Assembly: GCA_964597925.1 (NCBI GenBank)
Contig: CAZQZT010000002.1
Coordinates: 39,038 to 103,037 of the forward strand
Length of the DNA stretch: 64,000 nucleotides
From: an uncultured Candidatus Saccharibacteria bacterium
Lineage (GTDB): Bacteria > Patescibacteriota > Saccharimonadia > Saccharimonadales > JBBQAJ01
Direction: 5' to 3'
This document shows positions 23,907-36,073 of the stretch, in pieces. The notes under the pieces are model-generated. The model worked only from the letters and a program-made list of their open reading frames with translations, did no database searches and was not told the origin of the DNA. The translations under genes were made by a program, and so were the position numbers. Position 1 is the stretch's first letter; every line of letters begins with the position of its first letter.

Positions 23907-24080
23907 TTCTTTATTTGCTTTTTTTGAGGCTTTCTATTTCCTCAAGCAATTCGTATCTGGTGCGCAAATCACGCCGCGCACTCCTATCGTCTGCAGAAAC
24001 TTCTATGTTTTCTACTAATTTATTCATACTAAAGCCTAGTGGTTTTTTATTTTCAGTATCTTTGTGTACGCCCTTTCGGG

Positions 24081-25388
24081 TTAATCTCCAATTTTTAATG
24101 CATTCACTAATCCATTAATTACTATACGTTCTTGCTTTGTTGTGTCGCGGTTGCGGATGGTTACTGTGTTGTCTTTTAGGGTATCGAAGTCCACAACTAC
24201 ACAGTATGGAGTTCCTATTTCGTCTTGCCTGCGGTAGCGTTTGCCTATGTTTCCGTTGTCATCATACATGACGTTTCCAAACTCCTTCTTGAGCATATCA
24301 AAGACTTCCTTTGCTTTGGCTACTAGTTCTGGCTTGTTCTTTAGTAGCGGGCTTACGGCTACGCGCACAGGTGCTAAATGAGCTGGGAGTTTTAGATACG
24401 CGCGTGCCTCTCCGTTTACTTCGTCTTCTGTATAAGCAGAAGTCAAAACGGCCATTATTGCCCGCTCTACGCCAAAACTTGGCTCTATCACATGTGGCAC
24501 ATATGATTCAGCACCATCTTTTGGGCGATAATCCATGCTTTTACCAGAAGCGTTCTGAATGTTCATAAGATCAAAGTCTGTCCGGTACGCCAGTCCAAGT
24601 AACTCGTCTTTGCGATGCGGGAAGTCAAACACAAAGTCAATGGTGCGTTTGCTGTAGTGGGCGCGGTCTGCTTCTGGTACCTCAAGTTCATTAACCTTGT
24701 CTTCTGGTATGCCTAGGGCTTCCAAAAACTTGTATATGTTTTTTATCCAATTTTTAAATTCTGCTTCCCATTTATCTGCATGTACAAAATACTCTATTTC
24801 CATCATTTCAAACTCTCTAGAGCGGAATATAAAGTCACGGGGAGATATCTCGTTACGGAAAGCCTTTCCCTGCTGCGCTATACCAAATGGCACGTCAGGA
24901 TAGAACGCATCCAACACGTTTTTATAATTGGTAAATATACCCTGCGCCGTTTCTGGTCGTAGATAGCTAATGGAATGTTCATCATCCACTGGGCCAACCT
25001 GCGTCTTAAACATCATATTGAACTGGCGAGGTTCGCTAAATGTGCCTTCTTTGCCACAGTTGGGACACTTTTTAGCTTCTATATGGTCAGCCCGTAGTCG
25101 AGCTTTGCAATTATTACATTCTACTAATGGGTCGGTAAAAGTATCTACATGACCACTGGCCTGCCAGACTTTTTGATTCATTAGGATCGCGGCGTCTACA
25201 CCGTACATATCGTCTCGGTCTTCTACGAACATTTTCCACCACAGGTCCACAACGTTCTTTTTCAGCGCAACGCCTAATGGACCGTAGTCCCATGTACCGG
25301 CCAAACCACCATAGATTTCAGAACCTTGGAATATAAAACCTCTGCGCTTGCACAGAGAAACAATATCTTCCATTTTCACATCATTCAT
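24081..25388 (-). CDS. glyQS: Glycine--tRNA ligase (homodimeric GlyQS type)
   Basis: LCKRRGFIFQGSEIYGGLAGTWDYGPLG, class II motifs (FRNEISPR, GVERA), anticodon-binding C-terminus. Confidence 0.92.
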   Translation of the reverse strand: MNDVKMEDIVSLCKRRGFIFQGSEIYGGLAGTWDYGPLGVALKKNVVDLWWKMFVEDRDDMYGVDAAILMNQKVWQASGHVDTFTDPLVECNNCKARLRADHIEAKKCPNCGKEGTFSEPRQFNMMFKTQVGPVDDEHSISYLRPETAQGIFTNYKNVLDAFYPDVPFGIAQQGKAFRNEISPRDFIFRSREFEMMEIEYFVHADKWEAEFKNWIKNIYKFLEALGIPEDKVNELEVPEADRAHYSKRTIDFVFDFPHRKDELLGLAYRTDFDLMNIQNASGKSMDYRPKDGAESYVPHVIEPSFGVERAIMAVLTSAYTEDEVNGEARAYLKLPAHLAPVRVAVSPLLKNKPELVAKAKEVFDMLKKEFGNVMYDDNGNIGKRYRRQDEIGTPYCVVVDFDTLKDNTVTIRNRDTTKQERIVINGLVNALKIGD

Positions 25389-25602
25389 ATTAGTTACAGA
25401 TTATATCTGAAACCCATCTGAACGTACAGGGATGCTTCAGTCGACTTGGTCGATATTTGGCTTTACCAGCTCCAGACGTCTACCAATTTGAACTGTTAAA
25501 CGGTACATCGCATCAATGTGCTCTACTCGGCTGGTTGCGCAGCGATATCTTTGCATTGCCTGAGCATAATCGTGCTTTGAACCTATAATTTCTTGCGACT
25601 TT

Positions 25603-25935
25603 TTATGAAGTTTTTTCTAAGTTAGCATCGCTATAACCTAAGTAAGCACTGACTAGTTTTTCAAAACTAATTCGTAAAACATGAATTGCAAACAACTCCC
25701 TTTCTGCAACATACGTACCATATTCTTCTAGAGTTTCTGCGTCTAGTTTACGTACAGACGCGTCTGGCAAAACAGTGATCTGAATCGCAGTGTCCACTAA
25801 TGCAGGAGCACATACCTCTACGCTTGCATTATTTTGCTCCAAGCTAGCAATGGTGCTCGGCAATAAAGCCTCTACGCCAATTGTGGCCGCAACACCCGCA
25901 CCTAGCGCTACTACCGCCCTAACGATGTTATTCAT
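25603..25935 (-). CDS. hypothetical protein with N-terminal hydrophobic segment
   Basis: 110 aa. AVVALGAGVAATIGV anchor. No recognisable domain. Confidence 0.4.
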   Translation of the reverse strand: MNNIVRAVVALGAGVAATIGVEALLPSTIASLEQNNASVEVCAPALVDTAIQITVLPDASVRKLDAETLEEYGTYVAERELFAIHVLRISFEKLVSAYLGYSDANLEKTS

Positions 25936-25981
25936 ATCGTATGTATAGCAGTTTGAAGCAGTATTGTATATTGCCCGTAGA

Positions 25982-26677
25982 TTAAGTGCGTATATGGTTG
26001 GGGAGGATGGTTTGGATTAGTTGTAGAGTGGGTTTGATTAGTTTTTCTACATCCTTAACCTTTTGCAGTAAATCTGGTTTGTTGCCACTTAGTACTAGAC
26101 GCAGGAATTTGATATGGTCGGCACGGTATGGGCCCTCTGGGTGCGGGCTAAAGGCCATATCATCATATGAAAATATGTACGCGCCATCTTGACTTAGTGG
26201 TTTGCCAGACGCGTCTGTACGCAAACTAGGCGTGTGACCGGCAATTCTAAGAAGTTGGGCGCTAAACCATAGATTTATTAGGTCGATTTCTATGTTTGGG
26301 TTGTCTAGTGCTTCCAATGTATCTGATAGCAATTCAAAATATTCTGGCTCTGGTGCGTCTTCTGTGACTTTGTTTAACAGTTTTATGAGTTCGTAGCCCA
26401 GCATGGTTCGGTTGATATCTTGAACTATGGTGTCAAAATACTTGATCAACCGTGCTGAGGTTAGCGTGCACAGCTCTCCTCTACCTTTTATGTATCCAAT
26501 TTCTGCTATGCAAAAAAGTTCTATACCGCCTGCCATTTTGGATTTGCTTTTGCGCACGCCTTTTGCCAAAACTCGAACTTTGCCTTGATCTGGCGTTAGT
26601 AGAGTAAGTATCCGGTCTGCTTCTTGGTAATTTGTCCGCACCAGCACAATACTCCGCGTAATGGTCTGGTTTTTCAT
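25982..26677 (-). CDS. recO: DNA repair protein RecO
   Basis: OB-fold N-terminus (IVLVRTNYQEADRILTLLTPDQGKVRVLAKGVRKSKSK) and helical C-terminus. ATGA-type overlap with the upstream gene. Confidence 0.8.
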   Translation of the reverse strand: MKNQTITRSIVLVRTNYQEADRILTLLTPDQGKVRVLAKGVRKSKSKMAGGIELFCIAEIGYIKGRGELCTLTSARLIKYFDTIVQDINRTMLGYELIKLLNKVTEDAPEPEYFELLSDTLEALDNPNIEIDLINLWFSAQLLRIAGHTPSLRTDASGKPLSQDGAYIFSYDDMAFSPHPEGPYRADHIKFLRLVLSGNKPDLLQKVKDVEKLIKPTLQLIQTILPNHIRT

Positions 26678-27060
26678 TTCGGCAACAGCAAATTATTCAC
26701 TGCTTTAACCATTTGCGCTGTGCTTGTTCGAGGTTTGTATAAAACAACTTTTACTTTAAGCTGTTCTAAAGAAGCAGAAAATATTTTGTCCTGGGCTTTG
26801 GAGTTTATGGTGTGAACGATGACTGGTATGTCTTGCCATTCTGGATAGGAAGCAATTTCGTACAAAAACTCTATACCATTATGCATACCTAGCTGCATCT
26901 CTAGGATTATCAAGTCTGGAACAGTTTCATCAAGTGCATCCAGGGCTGTTTGGGCACTGCGCTTCCAAGCAACATTGTAACCAAACGCTTCTAGCGCGCT
27001 TTTGATAGTCTCACCCAAAATCTTATCTGATTCTACGACTAGTATATTCACTGGTTTCAA
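26674..27060 (-). CDS. Stand-alone receiver (CheY-like) domain with Glu at the phospho-acceptor position
   Basis: 128 aa. ILVVESD..., PDLIILEMQLGMHNG (canonical DxxxLD replaced by ...ILE), VIVHT and LYKP conserved positions are present. Confidence 0.7.
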   Translation of the reverse strand: MKPVNILVVESDKILGETIKSALEAFGYNVAWKRSAQTALDALDETVPDLIILEMQLGMHNGIEFLYEIASYPEWQDIPVIVHTINSKAQDKIFSASLEQLKVKVVLYKPRTSTAQMVKAVNNLLLPK

Positions 27061-27073
27061 GTGTATCAGAATT

Positions 27074-27787
27074 CTAAATTAGCTGGAGCTGGTGGCTAGG
27101 AGAAAGAAGCGAACCTATGCCAGTAAGCGAACGGTGTCTGTAGGCTCTAAGTGGCGCGTGCATCTGTTCGCTCAGTTTGTCTGCTATGGCTAGCCCTGCT
27201 CCGCCCGCCAAACCAAGCGACGGTACCGCTTGGGTGGCGCGTCCATGAAGCTCACGGGTTAACTGGAGTGCACGTTGCGACAAAGCCACGTGGTTACTAA
27301 AGGCCCCGACCACTGTACCGCGGGCTGAACGGTGTGTGCCTAGAACTAAATAGTGCGGTATATCAGCGTCTTCTGCACTAGCTTCTATAAGACTAGCACC
27401 CAGAAGCGTGAGCATGGTTTTTAGGCTTTCACGATGAGCCATAATGGGCACTCCCTTACCCTGCTGATCGATTTCTATAGTGTAGTCCCATTGTTTGGCA
27501 AATGGCTGTAGTGCTATAGCAACATCATATAAAACAGCGCCGGTAGTAAGTGGTTCTAGCAAAAGTTTGGTTTGCTTTTGGGCATACGATTGAGAGTAAG
27601 CATCTACCAACCTAAGCGCATGTTCGCTAACCACAGATATACGGGGCAATACAGTTTTACCAGAAAGTTCACTCAAACGAGCAATTTGTAGCAACGGCAC
27701 CTTTAATTGCTCTGCAAGCGCCATAAAAAGTTGATCTGATTGGTTACCATTCCCCAAGGCACATACCCTCGCCTTACTTATGGCCAA
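27074..27787 (-). CDS. Cytoplasmic histidine-kinase-like protein (degenerate DHp H-box and HATPase-like C-terminus)
   Basis: LFMALAEQLKVPLLQIARLSEL aligns to the H-box consensus FxxxxSHELRTPLxxI with Glu in place of His. The C-terminus GLAGGAGLAIADKLSEQMHAPL resembles the G2 box. No TM segments. Confidence 0.45.
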   Translation of the reverse strand: MAISKARVCALGNGNQSDQLFMALAEQLKVPLLQIARLSELSGKTVLPRISVVSEHALRLVDAYSQSYAQKQTKLLLEPLTTGAVLYDVAIALQPFAKQWDYTIEIDQQGKGVPIMAHRESLKTMLTLLGASLIEASAEDADIPHYLVLGTHRSARGTVVGAFSNHVALSQRALQLTRELHGRATQAVPSLGLAGGAGLAIADKLSEQMHAPLRAYRHRSLTGIGSLLSPSHQLQLI

Positions 27788-27814
27788 TTATAACACTATT
27801 GAACAATAAATATG

Positions 27815-28576
27815 CTACGGAACAAACTTGAGATTAGGTAATACGATGTTGTTAAAATCACCCTGGAATTGCTGAGATTCAGTAGATATTTTTATGGTTT
27901 TGTCTCTGAGAGGGAGTAAAACTATACTGCCGTTTTGCCCAGCGTTTATCTCACCGTCAATTCTAGCGCCTATAACGCTAGGAACGTTTTTTGCGGTAAA
28001 CGGCGTAACTTTTACTTTGCCAGCTTTTACTTTGCTTTCATACTGTTTCATTTCTGAGTCGAACGATTGACTTGTTACTTGTATGCGCAAAGCATAAGCG
28101 GCTTTGGACTGGGTACCAGGTACGAAATTTGGATGGAAATAACCGTCTAGAGGTGTAGATCCGTCACCCTTTTCTATAACATATGCGCTCCAAGTTTTTG
28201 GATAGCTGACGTTCACGCTACCGAAGTCTGCTGGGCCTTGGTATGTTTTTAGGGGCTCTTTTTCTTTTTCTAGGAATTCATTATCTTTTTTAGTTGATTC
28301 TTTCTTAACAGCAATGTCCGATGCCACGACTGCCTTTTGGTCGGAGTTGTTTTTATAATCTTGCTGGCTAGAATACGCCCATATGCCAAATACTAGAGAG
28401 CCGACAAGTAAGATTACACATATAACCAGCGCAATTGTAATACCCAGCCCACCTGATTTTTTTGGCTTGCCCTGAAATGGTGGCACGGCTGGAGGCACGG
28501 GATACGGCTGGAATGGCGCGCTATTTTGAGAAGGAGGCATAACGCTAATGGTAACCGAGTTAGCGACAATTTTCAA
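27815..28576 (-). CDS. Membrane-anchored extracytoplasmic protein, unknown function
   Basis: Pro-rich N-terminus, one TM segment (LGITIALVICVILLVGSLVFGIWAY), and a beta-rich ectodomain. Likely start at MPPSQ. Confidence 0.6.
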   Translation of the reverse strand: MKIVANSVTISVMPPSQNSAPFQPYPVPPAVPPFQGKPKKSGGLGITIALVICVILLVGSLVFGIWAYSSQQDYKNNSDQKAVVASDIAVKKESTKKDNEFLEKEKEPLKTYQGPADFGSVNVSYPKTWSAYVIEKGDGSTPLDGYFHPNFVPGTQSKAAYALRIQVTSQSFDSEMKQYESKVKAGKVKVTPFTAKNVPSVIGARIDGEINAGQNGSIVLLPLRDKTIKISTESQQFQGDFNNIVLPNLKFVP

Positions 28577-28588
28577 TGGCCGCGGTTA

Positions 28589-29098
28589 CTAGTCGTACCT
28601 GTAAAGGAAAAGACCGTTGAGTTCTTTCGAAAAACTTTTGCCCGGAATCACAAATGCATAGCTTACTAATTTTAATCTTTTAGGATGTAAAAGCTGCCAA
28701 CTCTTCATATCTTGTGCAATTTTTGTATCCAATTTGTGCATGTATCTATCTAATAAAAAAACATAAATACCATCTGTTAGTGGTAATTTATGATGCCAGA
28801 AATTGCCCCAGTAAAGCGTAATATATTCTCTGTATTTCCAGTGTTTTAGCGTACTCCAAAGCACCAGCAGCGGGTTTAGTTCATAGCCTATAGCGTATAT
28901 ACCCCGCTCAGCCGCGGCTCTCAAAATTCGGCCATCGCCACTACCCAGTTCTAGCATGGTTTGGCCGGGCTTTAGATCTAACAAATCCAAGGCATCAGAA
29001 GTTCTGGCTTTAAGGGTGGGTAAAAATGGTGCTCCAAAAACCACCACAAAACCAAAAATCAATATAAAAAACACTGCTATAAGAAATAACCATGTCAT
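28589..29098 (-). CDS. Class I SAM-dependent methyltransferase with N-terminal TM anchor
   Basis: Motif I MLELGSGDGRILRAAAERG. N-terminal WLFLIAVFFILIFGFVVVFGA. Confidence 0.65.
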   Translation of the reverse strand: MTWLFLIAVFFILIFGFVVVFGAPFLPTLKARTSDALDLLDLKPGQTMLELGSGDGRILRAAAERGIYAIGYELNPLLVLWSTLKHWKYREYITLYWGNFWHHKLPLTDGIYVFLLDRYMHKLDTKIAQDMKSWQLLHPKRLKLVSYAFVIPGKSFSKELNGLFLYRYD

Positions 29099-29280
29099 GT
29101 TTTTAAGTGTTCTATTTCATTCTTAACGTTTTTGAGATACTTCTCTAGTTGTTCTATGAGTTTTTGCCCTTGTTTGTACAAATCTAGGGCTTTATCTATA
29201 TCTAGTTCGGCAGATTGTAATTCTGAAAGTACGCTATCTAGTTGGGTTTGTAGCTCGCGATAGGAGACTTTTGTTGCCAT
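29095..29280 (-). CDS. xseB: Exodeoxyribonuclease VII small subunit
   Basis: 61 aa helical protein, SYRELQTQLDSVLSELQSAELDIDKALDLYKQGQKLIEQLEKYL, adjacent to xseA. Confidence 0.85.
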   Translation of the reverse strand: MATKVSYRELQTQLDSVLSELQSAELDIDKALDLYKQGQKLIEQLEKYLKNVKNEIEHLKT

Positions 29281-29284
29281 ATTG

Positions 29285-30427
29285 TTAGTTTACCTTATTT
29301 ATTGTAGCTTCGGCTGATCCGTCATGCAGCTGCAAGCTTATATGGTCGGCTGTTTTTAATAATTTTGCAGACTTTATAACCTGCGCACCAGACCGAATAA
29401 CTGCATAGCCACGCCTTAGCGCTGCCTGCGGATTCAATGCTTCTAAAAGATCCGCCTGGCGGGCTACATTTTGTTCGGCTGCTTGATAGACCTGTGCAAG
29501 CATCTGTGAGAGAGTTTTTTTGGTTTCTAGTGTATTCAACCCTCTAGCTTCTGTATTCTGCCGCAAGGTCCGGATCAGAGATAGTCGGGTTTCATGCAGG
29601 TGCTTTAGCACATCTTTTTTATCTGGAACTAAAAGCTGTGCAGCATTGCTTGGTGTGCTTGCCCGTAAGTCGGCAGCTAGTTCTGCTAAACTTATGTCTT
29701 CTTCGTGCCCTATGGCTACTAGCGTAGGTATACGACTTCCAGCAATTGCTCGCACCACTCGTTCTGCACTAAACGCCGCCAAATCATCGGCGCTACCGCC
29801 TCCGCGGGTAATAACCAACGCTTCTGGTGGATTAGACAACTGGTTCATGACTTCAATAGCATGGGAAATATCGGCAACAGCCGGTTCTCCCTGTACTTGC
29901 ACGTCATAGTGCACTACGCGCACCCCACTCCAGCGTTCGTTTAAGATTTTTATAAAGTCTGCGTAAGCTGCTGATTCTTTGGATGTAATCAAACCTACAC
30001 GTTCTGGTGCGAATGGAACCATACGCTTGCGAGCCGGGTCAAATAAACCTTCTTTTTCCAGTTTTGCCTGTAGTAAATCAGCAGCGCGCCTTAAACTGCC
30101 TTCGCCAACAGGCATGACTGACTGCAAGTTTAGACTAAAATTGTAAAGCGGGTGCACGCGCGGACTAGCCACAATTCGCACCATCATCCCTTCTTCTAGC
30201 GGACCAGGCAGCATATAAACTGTGCCGAAACATTTCACGCTAGCTGATTCATCTTTTATATCAAAGTAAACCCATTTGCCCCGGCTCACCCGCACATTTG
30301 CCAGCTCACCCTCTATGTTGACCAGCGGATAAGCAAACTCCAAAGTCTGATTCAATACGGCTACAAAGTCAGAAGGAGTAAAGATAATATCCATTTCTAT
30401 AACTTTAACACCAAAACACTGCGGCAT
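29285..30427 (-). CDS. xseA: Exodeoxyribonuclease VII large subunit (likely start MDIIF at 30394)
   Basis: OB-fold N-terminus (VNIEGELANVRVSRGKWVYFDIKDE) and catalytic core (ITRGGGSADDLAAF, VAIGHEEDISLAE). Confidence 0.88.
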   Translation of the reverse strand: MPQCFGVKVIEMDIIFTPSDFVAVLNQTLEFAYPLVNIEGELANVRVSRGKWVYFDIKDESASVKCFGTVYMLPGPLEEGMMVRIVASPRVHPLYNFSLNLQSVMPVGEGSLRRAADLLQAKLEKEGLFDPARKRMVPFAPERVGLITSKESAAYADFIKILNERWSGVRVVHYDVQVQGEPAVADISHAIEVMNQLSNPPEALVITRGGGSADDLAAFSAERVVRAIAGSRIPTLVAIGHEEDISLAELAADLRASTPSNAAQLLVPDKKDVLKHLHETRLSLIRTLRQNTEARGLNTLETKKTLSQMLAQVYQAAEQNVARQADLLEALNPQAALRRGYAVIRSGAQVIKSAKLLKTADHISLQLHDGSAEATINKVN

Positions 30428-30779
30428 GCGCCTGTGGCTCGCTATCGCCCATACTTTCTTGTGTTGACAAGAAAGTAGGCAAAGAAATCACGCCATATAC
30501 TACGAAAAACTACTAGCCTTTTTTGTGGTCAGCAGAAAAGAAAAAAAAGAACAGACGGATGGCATCAAAACACTATTTTCTCGAGAACCAGTACCTGCCC
30601 GAGCCGACAAAATGACCTTTAGAGTGTAGGATTCTTTAGGGTCTTTGTGACGAGTATGATCATTTTTACGGTGGAGTTCTTAAAGAAACGAAATCGGCCG
30701 TCGCTATTTTTTCATACTTTTTCTTCGACAAGAAAAAAATATGGTGGGAAGCCCGCCCTAGGCGGGTGCCGGAAGTATC

Positions 30780-31850
30780 TTATTCTTCTAATTTTACGAA
30801 TCCTTTTATTTCTTCGGCGTTTGTGGCGGTGTGGAGGTTTTTCTGATAGAAAACGTAGCCTGGCGGCAACTGAGTACCCATATTTACTACTCGATACATA
30901 ATAGTTACGGGCAAACTAATCGCGGCAGGTACACCACCCGCAACTAAAACAGCAGTCATAAGTGCTTCATATATACCGATTCCACCTGGCAAAATAGAAA
31001 TAAGTCCAGCAAAATTAGCAACTGCAAAGGCTAGAATTACAGCTCCAGGATTTACGAATTGACCAAACGCTGCATATACCGCATACAGCGATGCGACTTC
31101 GAACAAATTCGCCAGCAACGCAAACACAAGAGGCATCTTGAGCACTTTTAGATTGCGCCTAATATGCATGTAATTGATATGCAATTCGTGAAATGAAGAT
31201 TTGGCAGACACTATATTTATAGTTTCTGGATCATTACGGCGAAATACATGAATAATGCGGTTTAATACTCTAGCTACAGCCGTAAAAAAGCTATCTATGC
31301 GCTTTTTGCTGCCCACTACAAATACCAATATGGACGTACCCACAAACAAAAGCGTTGATAGCGAACCCGCCACTAGCAAAATAATGTCGTTTGCCTGACC
31401 TCCGACTGCCAGAGTTATCAAACCCAGAAAAAGTAGTACCTGAAAAGAGACAAATATCAGCACAAAGCGCATCAGCTGAACTAGTGTGGCCTGCGCTGTG
31501 GAAATTTTTTCATTCTTCAGACGTAAGCTGAGATATGAAAAACCACTAACTCCGCCGCTCGGAAACACCGTATTTACAAAGTTAAGCTCCAGGCTTAGAC
31601 GAAACATCGATCTAGTGCGAAATCTTTCACCCAGAATCCTAAACAAGCCTTGGTACAATTTGCCTTGTGAGAAATGATTTAGAAGCTGGAGTGGGATTAC
31701 CAACAAAACTACCCATAAACGAACGTTTTCAAGATTGCGCCAAGTATCTATAAGCTGATCCCTAACAGCATATGTTAATAATGCCAAAGCAATCAAAGTG
31801 ATAATAGTTAACGCTAATTTCCAACGTCTTTGCCGCTGCTTGTCAGTCAT
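30780..31850 (-). CDS. Flippase-like/LPG-synthase-TM (UPF0104) family membrane protein
   Basis: About 8 TM segments. Hallmark ILPGGIGIYEAL motif near the C-terminus. Confidence 0.7.
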   Translation of the reverse strand: MTDKQRQRRWKLALTIITLIALALLTYAVRDQLIDTWRNLENVRLWVVLLVIPLQLLNHFSQGKLYQGLFRILGERFRTRSMFRLSLELNFVNTVFPSGGVSGFSYLSLRLKNEKISTAQATLVQLMRFVLIFVSFQVLLFLGLITLAVGGQANDIILLVAGSLSTLLFVGTSILVFVVGSKKRIDSFFTAVARVLNRIIHVFRRNDPETINIVSAKSSFHELHINYMHIRRNLKVLKMPLVFALLANLFEVASLYAVYAAFGQFVNPGAVILAFAVANFAGLISILPGGIGIYEALMTAVLVAGGVPAAISLPVTIMYRVVNMGTQLPPGYVFYQKNLHTATNAEEIKGFVKLEE

Positions 31851-31883
31851 TAGACAATATTATAACAAGGTATACTGTTCTTT

Positions 31884-33107
31884 ATGACACAATCCGTTGC
31901 AATACTTGGCAGACAGCCCTCACTTGGCTTGGCCGAATTAGAAAGTTTATATGGTGGTGAGGTAATAACCCCGCTCGGCGTACAGGCCGCACTAGTAGAC
32001 GTAGACCCGTGCTTGCTTGCTTTTGACCGGCTGGGCGGCTCGGTAAAATTTGGCAAATTGCTTACAATCTTAGACAGCACAGACTGGCGAGAGATTGAAA
32101 AATTTTTAATAACCGTTGCGCCTGAACATTGTAAGCGTATGGTTGAGGGTAAAATGCAGCTGGGTTTAAGCGTAATTGGCATAAATGTAAGCCTAAAACA
32201 ACTGCAAATCACCGGACTCACGCTTAAAAAAGCCATCCGCCAAACTGGTCGTTCTGTTCGTCTGATCCCCAACAAAGCCCTAGAACTAAACACTGCGCAA
32301 GTTCTACACAACCATTTAACCGGCCCTACTGGCTGGGAGCTGTATTTCATCCGTGATGGACAGCGAACGGTTGTGGCTCAAACTATAAAAATCCAAGACA
32401 TAGAAGCCTACGCGGCGCGTGACCAAGCCAGACCCAAGCGAGATGCCCGAGTAGGCATGCTGCCCCCAAAACTGGCGCAAATAATTATAAATCTAGCTGT
32501 TGGCAAATTGCCAGCAAACAAACTAGCATCTATTTGCGATATCCCTGCAGGTGAGGTAATTCCCCGCCCCAAGCTCGACCAAACCGTACTTGACCCCTTC
32601 TGCGGTACCGGCGTAGTAGTGCAAGAAGCGCTTTTGATGGGCTATACCGCCTACGGAACTGATTTAGAAACGCGTATGGTGGAATATTCCACAGCAAACT
32701 TAGAATGGCTCCATGCATGGAACAAAAACTGGAAAATTGAAGCCGGTGATGCCACAAATTTCTCTTGGCAAGACTTTGACATAATAGCCTGTGAAATCTA
32801 CCTGGGACGCCCTTTTTCTGCTCTGCCGGCGCTCGAAGTGTTGCGAGAAGTAATGGTTGATGTAGACACAATACATAAAAAATTCCTACTAAATGTTGCC
32901 AAGCAAACAAAACCAGGCTTCCGAATGTGCTTAGCCGTACCCGCCTGGAAGACAAAACAAGGCTTTGCACACCTTAAAATGCTTGATAATCTGTCAGATT
33001 TGGGGTATACTCGGTCGGTATTTACTCATGTGGACAGTGCGGACTTGATCTATCACAGACCAGACCAAATCGTAGCCCGTGAGCTAGTCGTTTTAACAAG
33101 AGTATAA
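31884..33107 (+). CDS. Putative SAM-dependent (RNA/DNA) methyltransferase, UPF0020/Trm11-like
   Basis: Motif I VLDPFCGTGVVVQEALLMGY. N-terminal non-catalytic domain. TATACT (31871..31876) lies 7 nt before the ATG. Confidence 0.5.
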   Translation: MTQSVAILGRQPSLGLAELESLYGGEVITPLGVQAALVDVDPCLLAFDRLGGSVKFGKLLTILDSTDWREIEKFLITVAPEHCKRMVEGKMQLGLSVIGINVSLKQLQITGLTLKKAIRQTGRSVRLIPNKALELNTAQVLHNHLTGPTGWELYFIRDGQRTVVAQTIKIQDIEAYAARDQARPKRDARVGMLPPKLAQIIINLAVGKLPANKLASICDIPAGEVIPRPKLDQTVLDPFCGTGVVVQEALLMGYTAYGTDLETRMVEYSTANLEWLHAWNKNWKIEAGDATNFSWQDFDIIACEIYLGRPFSALPALEVLREVMVDVDTIHKKFLLNVAKQTKPGFRMCLAVPAWKTKQGFAHLKMLDNLSDLGYTRSVFTHVDSADLIYHRPDQIVARELVVLTRV

Positions 33108-35611: not shown

Positions 35612-36073
35612 CTACATACCAAGGTTTTGCTTTATACGGTCAACCACGTCTGCTATAACAACTTGAGATTTTACCAAGTAATCATCTACGCCCAGGGATT
35701 CGGCGCGTTCTTTGTCACTGTCTTGGCTCAGTGCAGTTAGCATGATTACTTTTACGTTCATAGTTTCGGGAGTGTTGCGTAGTATGTCTAGCACGTCAAA
35801 ACCACTGACTTTGGGCATCATGACGTCTAAAAGTACTAAGTCTGGTCTGTATTCTACTACTGCTGCCAGTGCTTCTTCTCCGTTAGGTACTCGCCGAAAG
35901 TCAAAACCCTCTGCCTGCAGACGGGATTGATAGACACTGGCAAGCGCGTCATCGTCTTCTACGAGTAAAATCTTTTTAGCGTGTGGCACAGTTGGGTCTG
36001 GTGGAGCCGGTGTCGTTGGTGTTTGTTGTTCCTCCATAGGGTTTATGTTACATGAGCAATGGTCAATGTTCAA
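35612..36073 (-). CDS. Stand-alone response-regulator receiver domain (canonical Asp), Pro/Thr-rich N-terminal extension
   Basis: KILLVEDDD, PDLVLLDVMMPKVSGFDVL, VIMLTA, DDYLVKS. Likely start MEEQQ (36037). Confidence 0.8.
   Translation of the reverse strand: MNIDHCSCNINPMEEQQTPTTPAPPDPTVPHAKKILLVEDDDALASVYQSRLQAEGFDFRRVPNGEEALAAVVEYRPDLVLLDVMMPKVSGFDVLDILRNTPETMNVKVIMLTALSQDSDKERAESLGVDDYLVKSQVVIADVVDRIKQNLGM

Follow-up and report, generated by a model that had tools for sequence, protein, structure and literature searches.

A candidate pseudo-histidine kinase and pseudo-receiver pair conserved in Saccharibacteria

We analyzed a 64,000-nucleotide stretch of DNA (the window) from an uncultured Candidatus Saccharibacteria bacterium (contig CAZQZT010000002.1, positions 39,038 to 103,037) and find that it encodes, side by side on the minus strand, a small histidine-kinase homolog (psHK, for pseudo-histidine kinase) and a stand-alone receiver (psREC, for pseudo-receiver), each with glutamate at the column of the phospho-accepting residue. 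Because the residues of phosphorylation are lost yet the pair is strongly conserved across Saccharibacteria, psHK and psREC probably signal or scaffold without phosphotransfer, and we lean toward the view that they are a two-component pair which no longer transfers phosphate but has been retained as a working unit. Among the known cases that we found there is none in which two small cognate proteins, encoded by separate genes and both disabled, are conserved throughout a reduced-genome lineage with the kinase half escaping standard domain models, and a literature search returned no paper describing psHK and psREC. The two open reading frames are:

26674..27060, minus strand: psREC, a stand-alone receiver of 128 aa (125 aa from a GTG at 27051)
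27074..27787, minus strand: psHK, a soluble DHp-CA protein (longest open reading frame, 237 aa)

psREC matches Pfam PF00072 (Response_reg) with E = 1.4e-14 and 54.7 bits (cutoff 30.2), and 57 receivers in the PDB match it at E <= 1e-3, with RR468 of Thermotoga maritima among the best sequence matches (E = 3e-12). In the phmmer alignment of psREC to RR468 (3dge_C), PDLIILEMQL pairs with PDLIVLDIMM, and therefore Glu54 of psREC stands on Asp53 of RR468. MAFFT recovers the same acceptor column with RR468, with CheY (Asp57) and with a second receiver of the window at 35612..36073; the latter reads 'LVLLDVMMP' and does carry the Asp for which an earlier reading made from the letters alone (the sequence-only reading) had chosen it as a comparison. 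Near the N terminus, 'VVESD' aligns with 'LVDDS', which places Glu10 on the first column of the acidic pocket (DD1), Ser11 on the second (DD2) and Asp12 one position later; across the family DD2 is Pro or Ser, and Pro in most orthologs. Thr84 (in 'VHT') and Lys109 (in 'YKP') are retained. psREC thus has the profile and the (beta-alpha)5 pattern, the Thr/Ser and the Lys of a canonical receiver and lacks the acceptor Asp and the Mg2+-binding Asp pair, in agreement with the sequence-only reading, which had seen a receiver with its fold markers kept and Glu at the phospho-Asp site. Judged by its sequence, psREC falls under the published definition of a pseudo-receiver, a protein that is computationally a receiver and lacks a residue for phosphotransfer (PMC12632262). 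The positions of interest are:

26899..26901, minus strand: Glu54 codon GAG, on the phospho-acceptor Asp column in the phmmer and MAFFT alignments
27031..27033, minus strand: Glu10 codon GAA, on the DD1 column of the alignments
26809..26811, minus strand: Thr84 codon ACC, the conserved Thr/Ser position, retained (Thr in 119 and Ser in 42 of 162 sequences)
26734..26736, minus strand: Lys109 codon AAA, the conserved Lys position, retained within an invariant 'YKP' (Lys in 161 of 162)
26836..26895, minus strand: a family-specific signature after the acceptor, Q56-L-x-x-H60-x-G62-x-E64-F-L-Y-E68-x-x-S71-Y72-x-x-W75, from column counts over the 162 sequences

For psHK, direct scans of the protein and of 34 family members against Pfam and NCBIfam gave no kinase match (the best Pfam HisKA E-value among the 34 members is 0.17), none of 114 psHK homolog clusters carries a Pfam domain, and a single-sequence phmmer search of psHK against the PDB returned nothing meaningful. 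Because the direct scans were empty, its homology had to be established by profile-to-PDB and fold searches. A profile built from the 34 homologs matches the hybrid kinase 6qrj_A (E = 6.4e-5) and CpxA (E = 0.098), with 'lalaeqLkvPL' opposite 'LATLSHEFRTPL'. Divergent members of the family reach sub-threshold Pfam HisKA E-values of 0.0023, 0.014 and 0.11, and one divergent member reads 'GEELKKPLTAIK', which is nearly the H-box of HK853 with Glu for His. The AlphaFold2 model of psHK (pLDDT 80.5, pTM 0.80) is a helical hairpin followed by an alpha/beta domain, and Foldseek aligns it to the DHp-CA region of HK853 with E = 1.1e-10 and a TM-score of 0.66-0.69 over ~230 columns; other leading fold matches in the PDB are DivL, CusS, SrrB, CpxA and WalK, with E-values in the range of 1e-10 to 1e-7, and RetS. 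An hhalign comparison of the psHK family with HK853 is full-length (183 columns) and its register fits the predicted secondary structure, with a score that is weak because the target is a single sequence. These data make psHK a soluble DHp-CA protein of HisKA-kinase descent, with the DHp hairpin and the CA (Bergerat-fold) domain of that class but no match to the HisKA (PF00512) or HATPase_c (PF02518) profiles. Neither a transmembrane segment nor a domain N-terminal to the DHp is present in psHK. The histidine-kinase likeness that the sequence-only reading had proposed for 27074..27787 is therefore real, on evidence that Pfam and NCBIfam miss. Both open reading frames that it described exist, but psHK probably starts at a TTG at 27757 rather than at 27787, giving 227 aa; this TTG has a Shine-Dalgarno-like GAGGG 8 nt upstream and agrees with the database gene call (P0001). 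Within psHK we distinguish:

27581..27742, minus strand: DHp-like helical hairpin, residues 16-69 (AlphaFold2 helices 16-40 and 46-69, which align to alpha1 and alpha2 of HK853)
27104..27556, minus strand: degenerate CA (HATPase_c-like) domain, residues 78-228 (AlphaFold2, Foldseek and hhalign; the ATP-lid is modeled with low confidence)
27677..27721, minus strand: degenerate H-box 'ALAEQLKVPLLQIAR', residues 23-37, aligned to SHEFRTPL / SHELRTPL
27710..27712, minus strand: Glu26 codon GAG, on the phospho-His column by profile-to-PDB and hhalign alignment

In the hhalign alignment Glu26 is opposite His260 of HK853, in the same register as in the profile alignment. Profile, structural and hhalign alignments thus all place Glu where the sequence-only reading had placed it, and its worry that a shifted manual alignment could be hiding a His or Asp falls away, since Glu occupies both acceptor columns. 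The ATP-binding boxes have fared little better. The N box 'MLTLLGASLIE' falls on 'LLNLLNNGVKY' with both Asn lost (Gly130/Ala131), the G1 box 'AFSNHVA' falls on 'VEDNGIG' with the Asp replaced by Ser164 and the glycines lost, and the G2 box 'AGGAGLAI' falls on 'GTGLGLAI' and is partly kept ('AGGAGLAIAD'); alignment and secondary-structure register together bear out the earlier description of a G2-like box among degenerate ones. The missing N-box Asn and G1 Asp are the residues that serve in binding Mg-ATP and adenine. Across 151 aligned representatives, the N-box Asn columns are Gly/Ala (Gly in 125 at one of them) and the G1 Asp column is Ser, Gly, Ala or Thr, while Asp203 and the G2-like glycine-rich segment are conserved. 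The HisKA phosphatase motif, E/D-x-x-T/N after the His, is also mostly absent: the H+1 position is Gln in 89 of 151 (Glu in 26, Asp in 12) and the H+4 position is Leu in 83 (Thr in 13, Asn in 3). No column of psHK holds a conserved His among the 151 representatives, the best reaching 60%, and an alternative phospho-His was rejected because the three His-rich columns (118, 152 and 218) are only 50-60% His. What is most conserved in psHK is helix alpha1 of the DHp ('AEQLKxPLLQIAR') and a C-terminal 'S-x-Q-L-x-L' tail. The concept of a pseudo-histidine kinase, that is, a histidine-kinase fold under selection that has lost histidine-kinase functions (Collins and Childers, as cited in PMC12632262), fits psHK, with the loss of activity predicted from the residues above. 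The C-terminal tail (residues 229-237; 27074..27100, minus strand) reads 'P-S-x-Q-L-x-L-[VI]', with Gln233 in 151/151 and Ser231 in 131/151 representatives, and has no counterpart in canonical kinases.

How far the two Glu residues are conserved was judged from four samples. The first, in which one genome of each GTDB species was scanned with a sequence pattern, gave 62 loci, essentially all from Saccharibacteria; for column counts, those loci, five fetched earlier and the window supply 62 receiver sequences. All 62 receivers have Glu at the acceptor column, Glu at DD1, Thr or Ser at the Thr/Ser position and Lys at the Lys position, and a receiver directly follows psHK in every locus with downstream sequence. 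This sample is uninformative on the kinase His column because the search pattern fixed Glu, Gln or Asp there. The second sample, an HMMER search of 1.84 billion cluster representatives, yielded 280 psHK clusters at E <= 1e-30, of which the best 150 are all 178-256 aa long; the His column of 151 aligned psHK sequences holds Glu in 118, Gln in 10, Asp in 10, His in 4, Asn in 2, Ala in 2, Leu in 2, Arg in 1 and a gap in 2. In the third sample, 105 proteins found by a homolog search with psREC, the acceptor is Glu in all 105, and when the first and third samples are pooled it is Glu in 162 of 162 unique psREC sequences. The fourth sample, a metagenome scan anchored on the neighboring membrane protein, comprises 80 loci and is unbiased for both acceptor columns. 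Here the acceptor of 42 unique receivers is Glu in 39, Asp in 2 and Ser in 1, and the psHK His column is Glu in 46 of 59; a psHK-type gene, a receiver and recO are present wherever there is enough sequence, with one exception (locus L101). The same scan gave only this family at this position, and no canonical His/Asp versions. All homologs that we found come from Saccharibacteria/Saccharimonadales genomes and metagenomes. These ortholog surveys rule out a strain-specific mutation. The receiver Glu is near-universal. The kinase Glu is not invariant: it prevails strongly (~78%) at a position that tolerates other residues.

Over the 162 unique psREC sequences, DD1 is Glu in 154 and gapped in the other 8, and the Thr/Ser and Lys positions are each kept in 161. 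The signature downstream of the acceptor is equally fixed: G62, E68 and S71 are found in all 162 sequences, H60, E64 and Y72 in 161, and Q56 in 157. It spans the loop between beta3 and alpha3 as well as one side of helix alpha3. Further near-invariant segments are Glu10-Pro-Asp12, Ala36-Gln37 and Tyr108-Lys109-Pro110. Taken together, the conserved positions make up a rebuilt pocket and an exposed alpha3 face.

Both genes are under strong purifying selection. Compared with the nearest genome (L006), amino acid identity is 88% for psHK, 82% for RecO, 71% for psREC and 66% for the membrane protein encoded upstream of psHK, and nonsynonymous divergence (dN) is 0.079, 0.112, 0.178 and 0.227, respectively, with synonymous sites saturated. 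Because dN is low at saturated synonymous divergence (dS), psHK and psREC are functional genes and not relics; decaying pseudogenes are ruled out, the reading frames also being intact in ~150 loci. psHK and psREC occur together in ~100 loci with one exception.

Published transposon sequencing (Tn-seq) data are available for a relative. The same gene order, with 4-nt overlaps as in the window, is found in Southlakia epibionticum ML1 (supplementary tables of Wang et al., Cell 2023; PMC10633639), where the genes have the following classes at T0/T1/T2 (ES, essential; GD, growth defect; NE, non-essential; psHK and receiver positions from Table S1):

SEML1_0242/0243: xseA and xseB, NE
SEML1_0244: SAM (S-adenosylmethionine) methyltransferase, NE
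SEML1_0245: PsbP-like hypothetical protein, ES/ES/ES
SEML1_0246: the psHK position, same size, GD/GD/ES
SEML1_0247: response regulator of 366 bp, NE/GD/ES
SEML1_0248: RecO, NE/NE/GD
SEML1_0249: GlyRS, GD/ES/ES

In Southlakia, at any rate, the kinase-like gene and the receiver gene that correspond to psHK and psREC in position and size are of importance for growth on the host.

We propose that there would be no His-to-Asp phosphotransfer between psHK and psREC. Instead, the Glu54 carboxylate, held by Thr84 and Lys109, would replace the acyl-phosphate and lock the receiver in an activated-like state. The locked psREC would dock on the DHp helices of a psHK dimer, as a phosphorylated regulator docks on DivL or on a phosphatase-state kinase, and the constitutive complex would act as an adaptor or scaffold for a further partner, contacted through the invariant alpha3 face of psREC and/or through the C-terminal tail and the remodeled former ATP pocket of psHK. 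Control would be exerted by protein abundance or ligand binding instead of phosphorylation. We infer both the protein-protein signaling and the phosphomimetic lock. Glu is the commonest replacement of the receiver Asp, a phosphomimetic role has been proposed for it, and Glu at the Asp position partially activates many regulators (PMC12632262). Pseudo-receivers in general commonly replace the Thr/Ser and Lys (PMC12632262); psRECs, by contrast, keep them in ~100% of sequences.

A number of observations weigh against this proposal. The loss of ATP binding by psHK is a prediction from alignment. Three receivers are exceptions at the acceptor column: that of L090 (3973-4413) reads 'VLDLQL' and has a D-A-D pocket, that of L105 (4079-4480) reads 'VVDMQL', and that of L122 (4041-4475) has Ser; their psHK partners still lack the His, with Glu at the His column for L090 and L105. 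Because Gln, Asp, His, Asn, Ala, Leu, Arg and Phe are also found on the psHK His column, Glu26 has no strict role. The four His-bearing variants (L068, L069/L070, L071 and L072; contexts of P0259, P0238, P0209 and P0215), with H-boxes 'AHELRMPL', 'AHDLRLPL', 'AHDISLPL' and 'AHQLKQPF', have the same gene order, degenerate N and G1 boxes and Glu-type receivers downstream. The putative docking positions Gln34/Arg37 of psHK are invariant in the genome-locus pairs and fall to 64%/58% in the 151 representatives. Helix alpha1, the main kinase-docking element of receivers in canonical pairs, is poorly conserved in psREC. One locus, L101 (1031-1290), has psREC straight after the membrane protein across a 258-nt gap with no psHK between, and could be a lineage in which psHK was lost or relocated, or an assembly artifact. 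Covariation by mutual information, between the equivalents of HK853 positions 268/271/275/294/297 and RR468 positions 13/14/17/21, was dominated by phylogenetic signal over 61 pairs, with two of the kinase positions invariant. Finally, SEML1_0246 has weak Pfam HisKA and HATPase_c matches (PMC10633639), and because of these it is possibly less degenerate than psHK; the Southlakia pair may be more canonical than the pair described here.

The weak conservation of helix alpha1 and the L101 arrangement also favor the strongest alternative, which is that psHK and psREC do not act together but were separately repurposed, psREC for instance as an adaptor of another machine and psHK as a scaffold, and are adjacent because Saccharibacteria gene order is rigid. 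The whole block is collinear in nearly all loci, even where a functional tie between its genes is implausible, as for recO beside glyS. We nevertheless consider this explanation unlikely: each gene derives from one half of a two-component system, the spacing between them is -4 to +6 nt, their co-occurrence breaks down in a single case, and the same-position genes of Southlakia follow similar Tn-seq trajectories. Somewhat less probable still is that psHK and/or psREC join a live phosphorelay through canonical partners elsewhere, for example the receiver at 35612..36073, acting as competitor or scaffold or, in the manner of DivL, reading whether another regulator is phosphorylated. There are precedents in DivL with DivK~P and in CmrT within CmrRST (PMC12632262; PMC4211667), a PAS kinase/regulator pair and one more orphan regulator are encoded in S. 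epibionticum (PMC10633639), and the window holds a canonical orphan receiver with no canonical histidine kinase detectable within its 64 kb. However, there is nothing to connect the loci, the phosphatase motif of HisKA kinases is mostly absent (the Leu at H+4), and the invariant Glu of psREC would be left unexplained.

We hold it to be improbable, more so than either of these alternatives, that the pair is a fossilized transfer complex in which the near-invariant receiver pocket has been rebuilt as a sensing site for a metal or small molecule and the dead DHp-CA partner reads its conformation and relays it further, a phosphorylation-free reverse signaling needed for the epibiotic lifestyle. 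The least probable explanation of all is cryptic chemistry, with Glu10, Asp12, Glu54, Gln56, His60, Thr84 and Lys109 of psREC forming an active or ligand site (a metal site, an acyl-phosphate on Glu or Asp12, or Glu methylation) and psHK binding nucleotide non-canonically; the near-invariance of these pocket residues, including the new Gln56 and His60, where most pseudo-receivers share few conserved residues (PMC12632262), the conserved Asp203 and G2-like segment of psHK, and a methyltransferase-like gene two genes upstream speak for it, but the family as a whole lacks the N-box Asn and the G1 Asp, Glu phosphorylation in receivers is without precedent, and the methyltransferase homolog is non-essential in Southlakia whereas the pair is not.

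Returning to a phosphotransfer-dead pair kept as a unit, comparison with known systems sets psHK and psREC apart from each of them. Pseudo-receivers (PsR/ALR), for example FrzS, the ChxR type and the Glu variants of the plant PRR type (PMC12632262), are like psREC recognized by PF00072 and lack the phospho-acceptor Asp. psREC differs from them in standing alone beside a cognate kinase-like gene, in keeping the Thr/Ser and Lys almost throughout with Glu at DD1, and in its own invariant signature (Q56, H60, E64, E68, S71, Y72). On the kinase side, DivL of Caulobacter crescentus (PDB 4q20) is also a DHp-CA protein without a phospho-His, serves as a binding module for an activated receiver, and matches psHK in structure (Foldseek E = 8e-9, TM-score 0.65). 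DivL has Tyr at the His column, PAS sensor domains and a phosphorylatable partner, DivK, whereas psHK is a bare DHp-CA protein of ~227 aa with Glu at this column, the N and G1 residues lost and a partner without Asp; its sequence would not place it with the DivL type, which is defined by the Tyr, the N-terminal PAS domains and the binding of a phosphorylated receiver. PsmA of Streptomyces venezuelae is a hybrid pseudokinase in which the His is replaced by Glu (Asp, Gln, Val or Tyr in orthologs), with degenerate ATP-binding motifs and without the HisKA phosphatase motif, and it functions independently of a phosphorelay (PMC12963549). It shares with psHK the Glu for His, the degenerate ATP motifs and the absent phosphatase motif. 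PsmA is, however, much larger (>1200 aa), includes an intrinsically disordered region and a fused receiver with its Asp intact, acts with DivIVA and belongs to the Streptomycetaceae, whereas psHK and psREC are separate proteins of 227 and 125 aa, have a receiver without Asp and occur in Saccharibacteria only; the large hybrid architecture, the fused Asp receiver and the Streptomycetaceae origin of the PsmA type are all lacking here. HK853-RR468 of T. maritima (PDB 3dge) is the best structural match for psHK and has the same DHp-CA module and an adjoining stand-alone receiver. His260, Asn380, Asp411 and the sensor/transmembrane region of HK853, and Asp53 of RR468, are missing or replaced in psHK and psREC.

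Saccharibacteria genomes are minimal (~1 Mb) and dispensable genes are quickly lost from them. psHK is annotated as a 'hypothetical protein', and because of this and of its invisibility to Pfam and NCBIfam, the system is missed by two-component genome surveys. Saccharibacteria are now genetically tractable, and since the same-position genes of Southlakia are essential at the last time point, phosphorylation-free signaling between a kinase-like protein and a receiver is directly testable. Pseudo-receivers make up several percent of receiver domains, their switching is largely obscure, and the studied examples are almost all orphans (PMC12632262). psREC differs from these orphans in that it is still encoded beside a kinase-like partner, with both disabled and both under strong selection.

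The pair lies in one tightly packed minus-strand run, in a region of ~43% G+C. The neighboring genes are:

30780..31850, minus strand: flippase/LPG-synthase-like membrane protein, in the packed run
29285..30427, minus strand: xseA, syntenic, upstream of the pair
29095..29280, minus strand: xseB, syntenic, upstream of the pair
28589..29098, minus strand: small, membrane-anchored SAM-methyltransferase-like gene, syntenic, upstream of the pair
27815..28576, minus strand: PsbP-like membrane-anchored protein, 253 aa, syntenic neighbor, with a probable start at ATG 28540
25982..26677, minus strand: recO (Pfam RecO_N/RecO_C and TIGR00613)
25603..25935, minus strand: 110-aa open reading frame between recO and glyS
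24081..25388, minus strand: glyS

The recO start overlaps the psREC stop by 4 nt (ATGA), an overlap kept in L001, L003, L004, L005, L069 and L072, and the psHK/psREC and psREC/recO junctions of related loci range from -4 to +6 nt. xseAB, the methyltransferase, the PsbP-like membrane protein, psHK, psREC, recO and glyS form a fixed block, and the 8-10 gene block that also includes the lpg-synthase-like gene is collinear in nearly all loci. The sequence-only reading had placed the pair in an operon with a membrane-anchored ectodomain protein and recO, and this context, with the membrane protein upstream and recO downstream, is kept in ~150 loci. Because the whole block is rigid, and no functional sense is obvious in recO lying next to glyS, a function cannot be assigned from synteny alone. 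Candidate promoters and terminators in 24000..32200 were about as frequent as expected by chance, which makes the scan uninformative. The 110-aa open reading frame has no detectable homolog in 67 related loci and may be lineage-specific or no gene.

The membrane protein lies directly upstream of psHK in 62 of 67 loci and consists of a short, variable cytoplasmic tail, a transmembrane helix, a long stalk helix and a PsbP/Mog1p-like ectodomain, which Foldseek matches to CyanoP (2lnj; E = 2.7e-5); profile searches against PDB sequences and Pfam gave no match. Because its cytoplasmic tail is short and variable, it does not suggest itself as the sensor of the pair; such a role is also unsupported by a psHK without a transmembrane segment and by the PsbP-like nature of the ectodomain. 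The family is very large, with 1522 clusters at E <= 1e-5. The methyltransferase-like protein (169 aa) is of the class-I SAM type with an N-terminal transmembrane helix; its gene overlaps xseB by 4 nt and is found at the same position in 59 of 67 loci, and its Southlakia counterpart is the non-essential SEML1_0244.

Elsewhere in the window, 35612..36073 (minus strand) encodes a stand-alone canonical Asp receiver with a 30-aa N-terminal extension, just downstream of pyrG. Among the related loci, L042 (OY969576.1) belongs to an uncultured bacterium with a 1.9-Mb 'chromosome', a large size for Saccharibacteria. L010 and L043 come from bins labeled Limnocylindrales and Dormiibacterota; because they carry the typical Saccharibacteria gene block, these labels likely reflect mis-binning.

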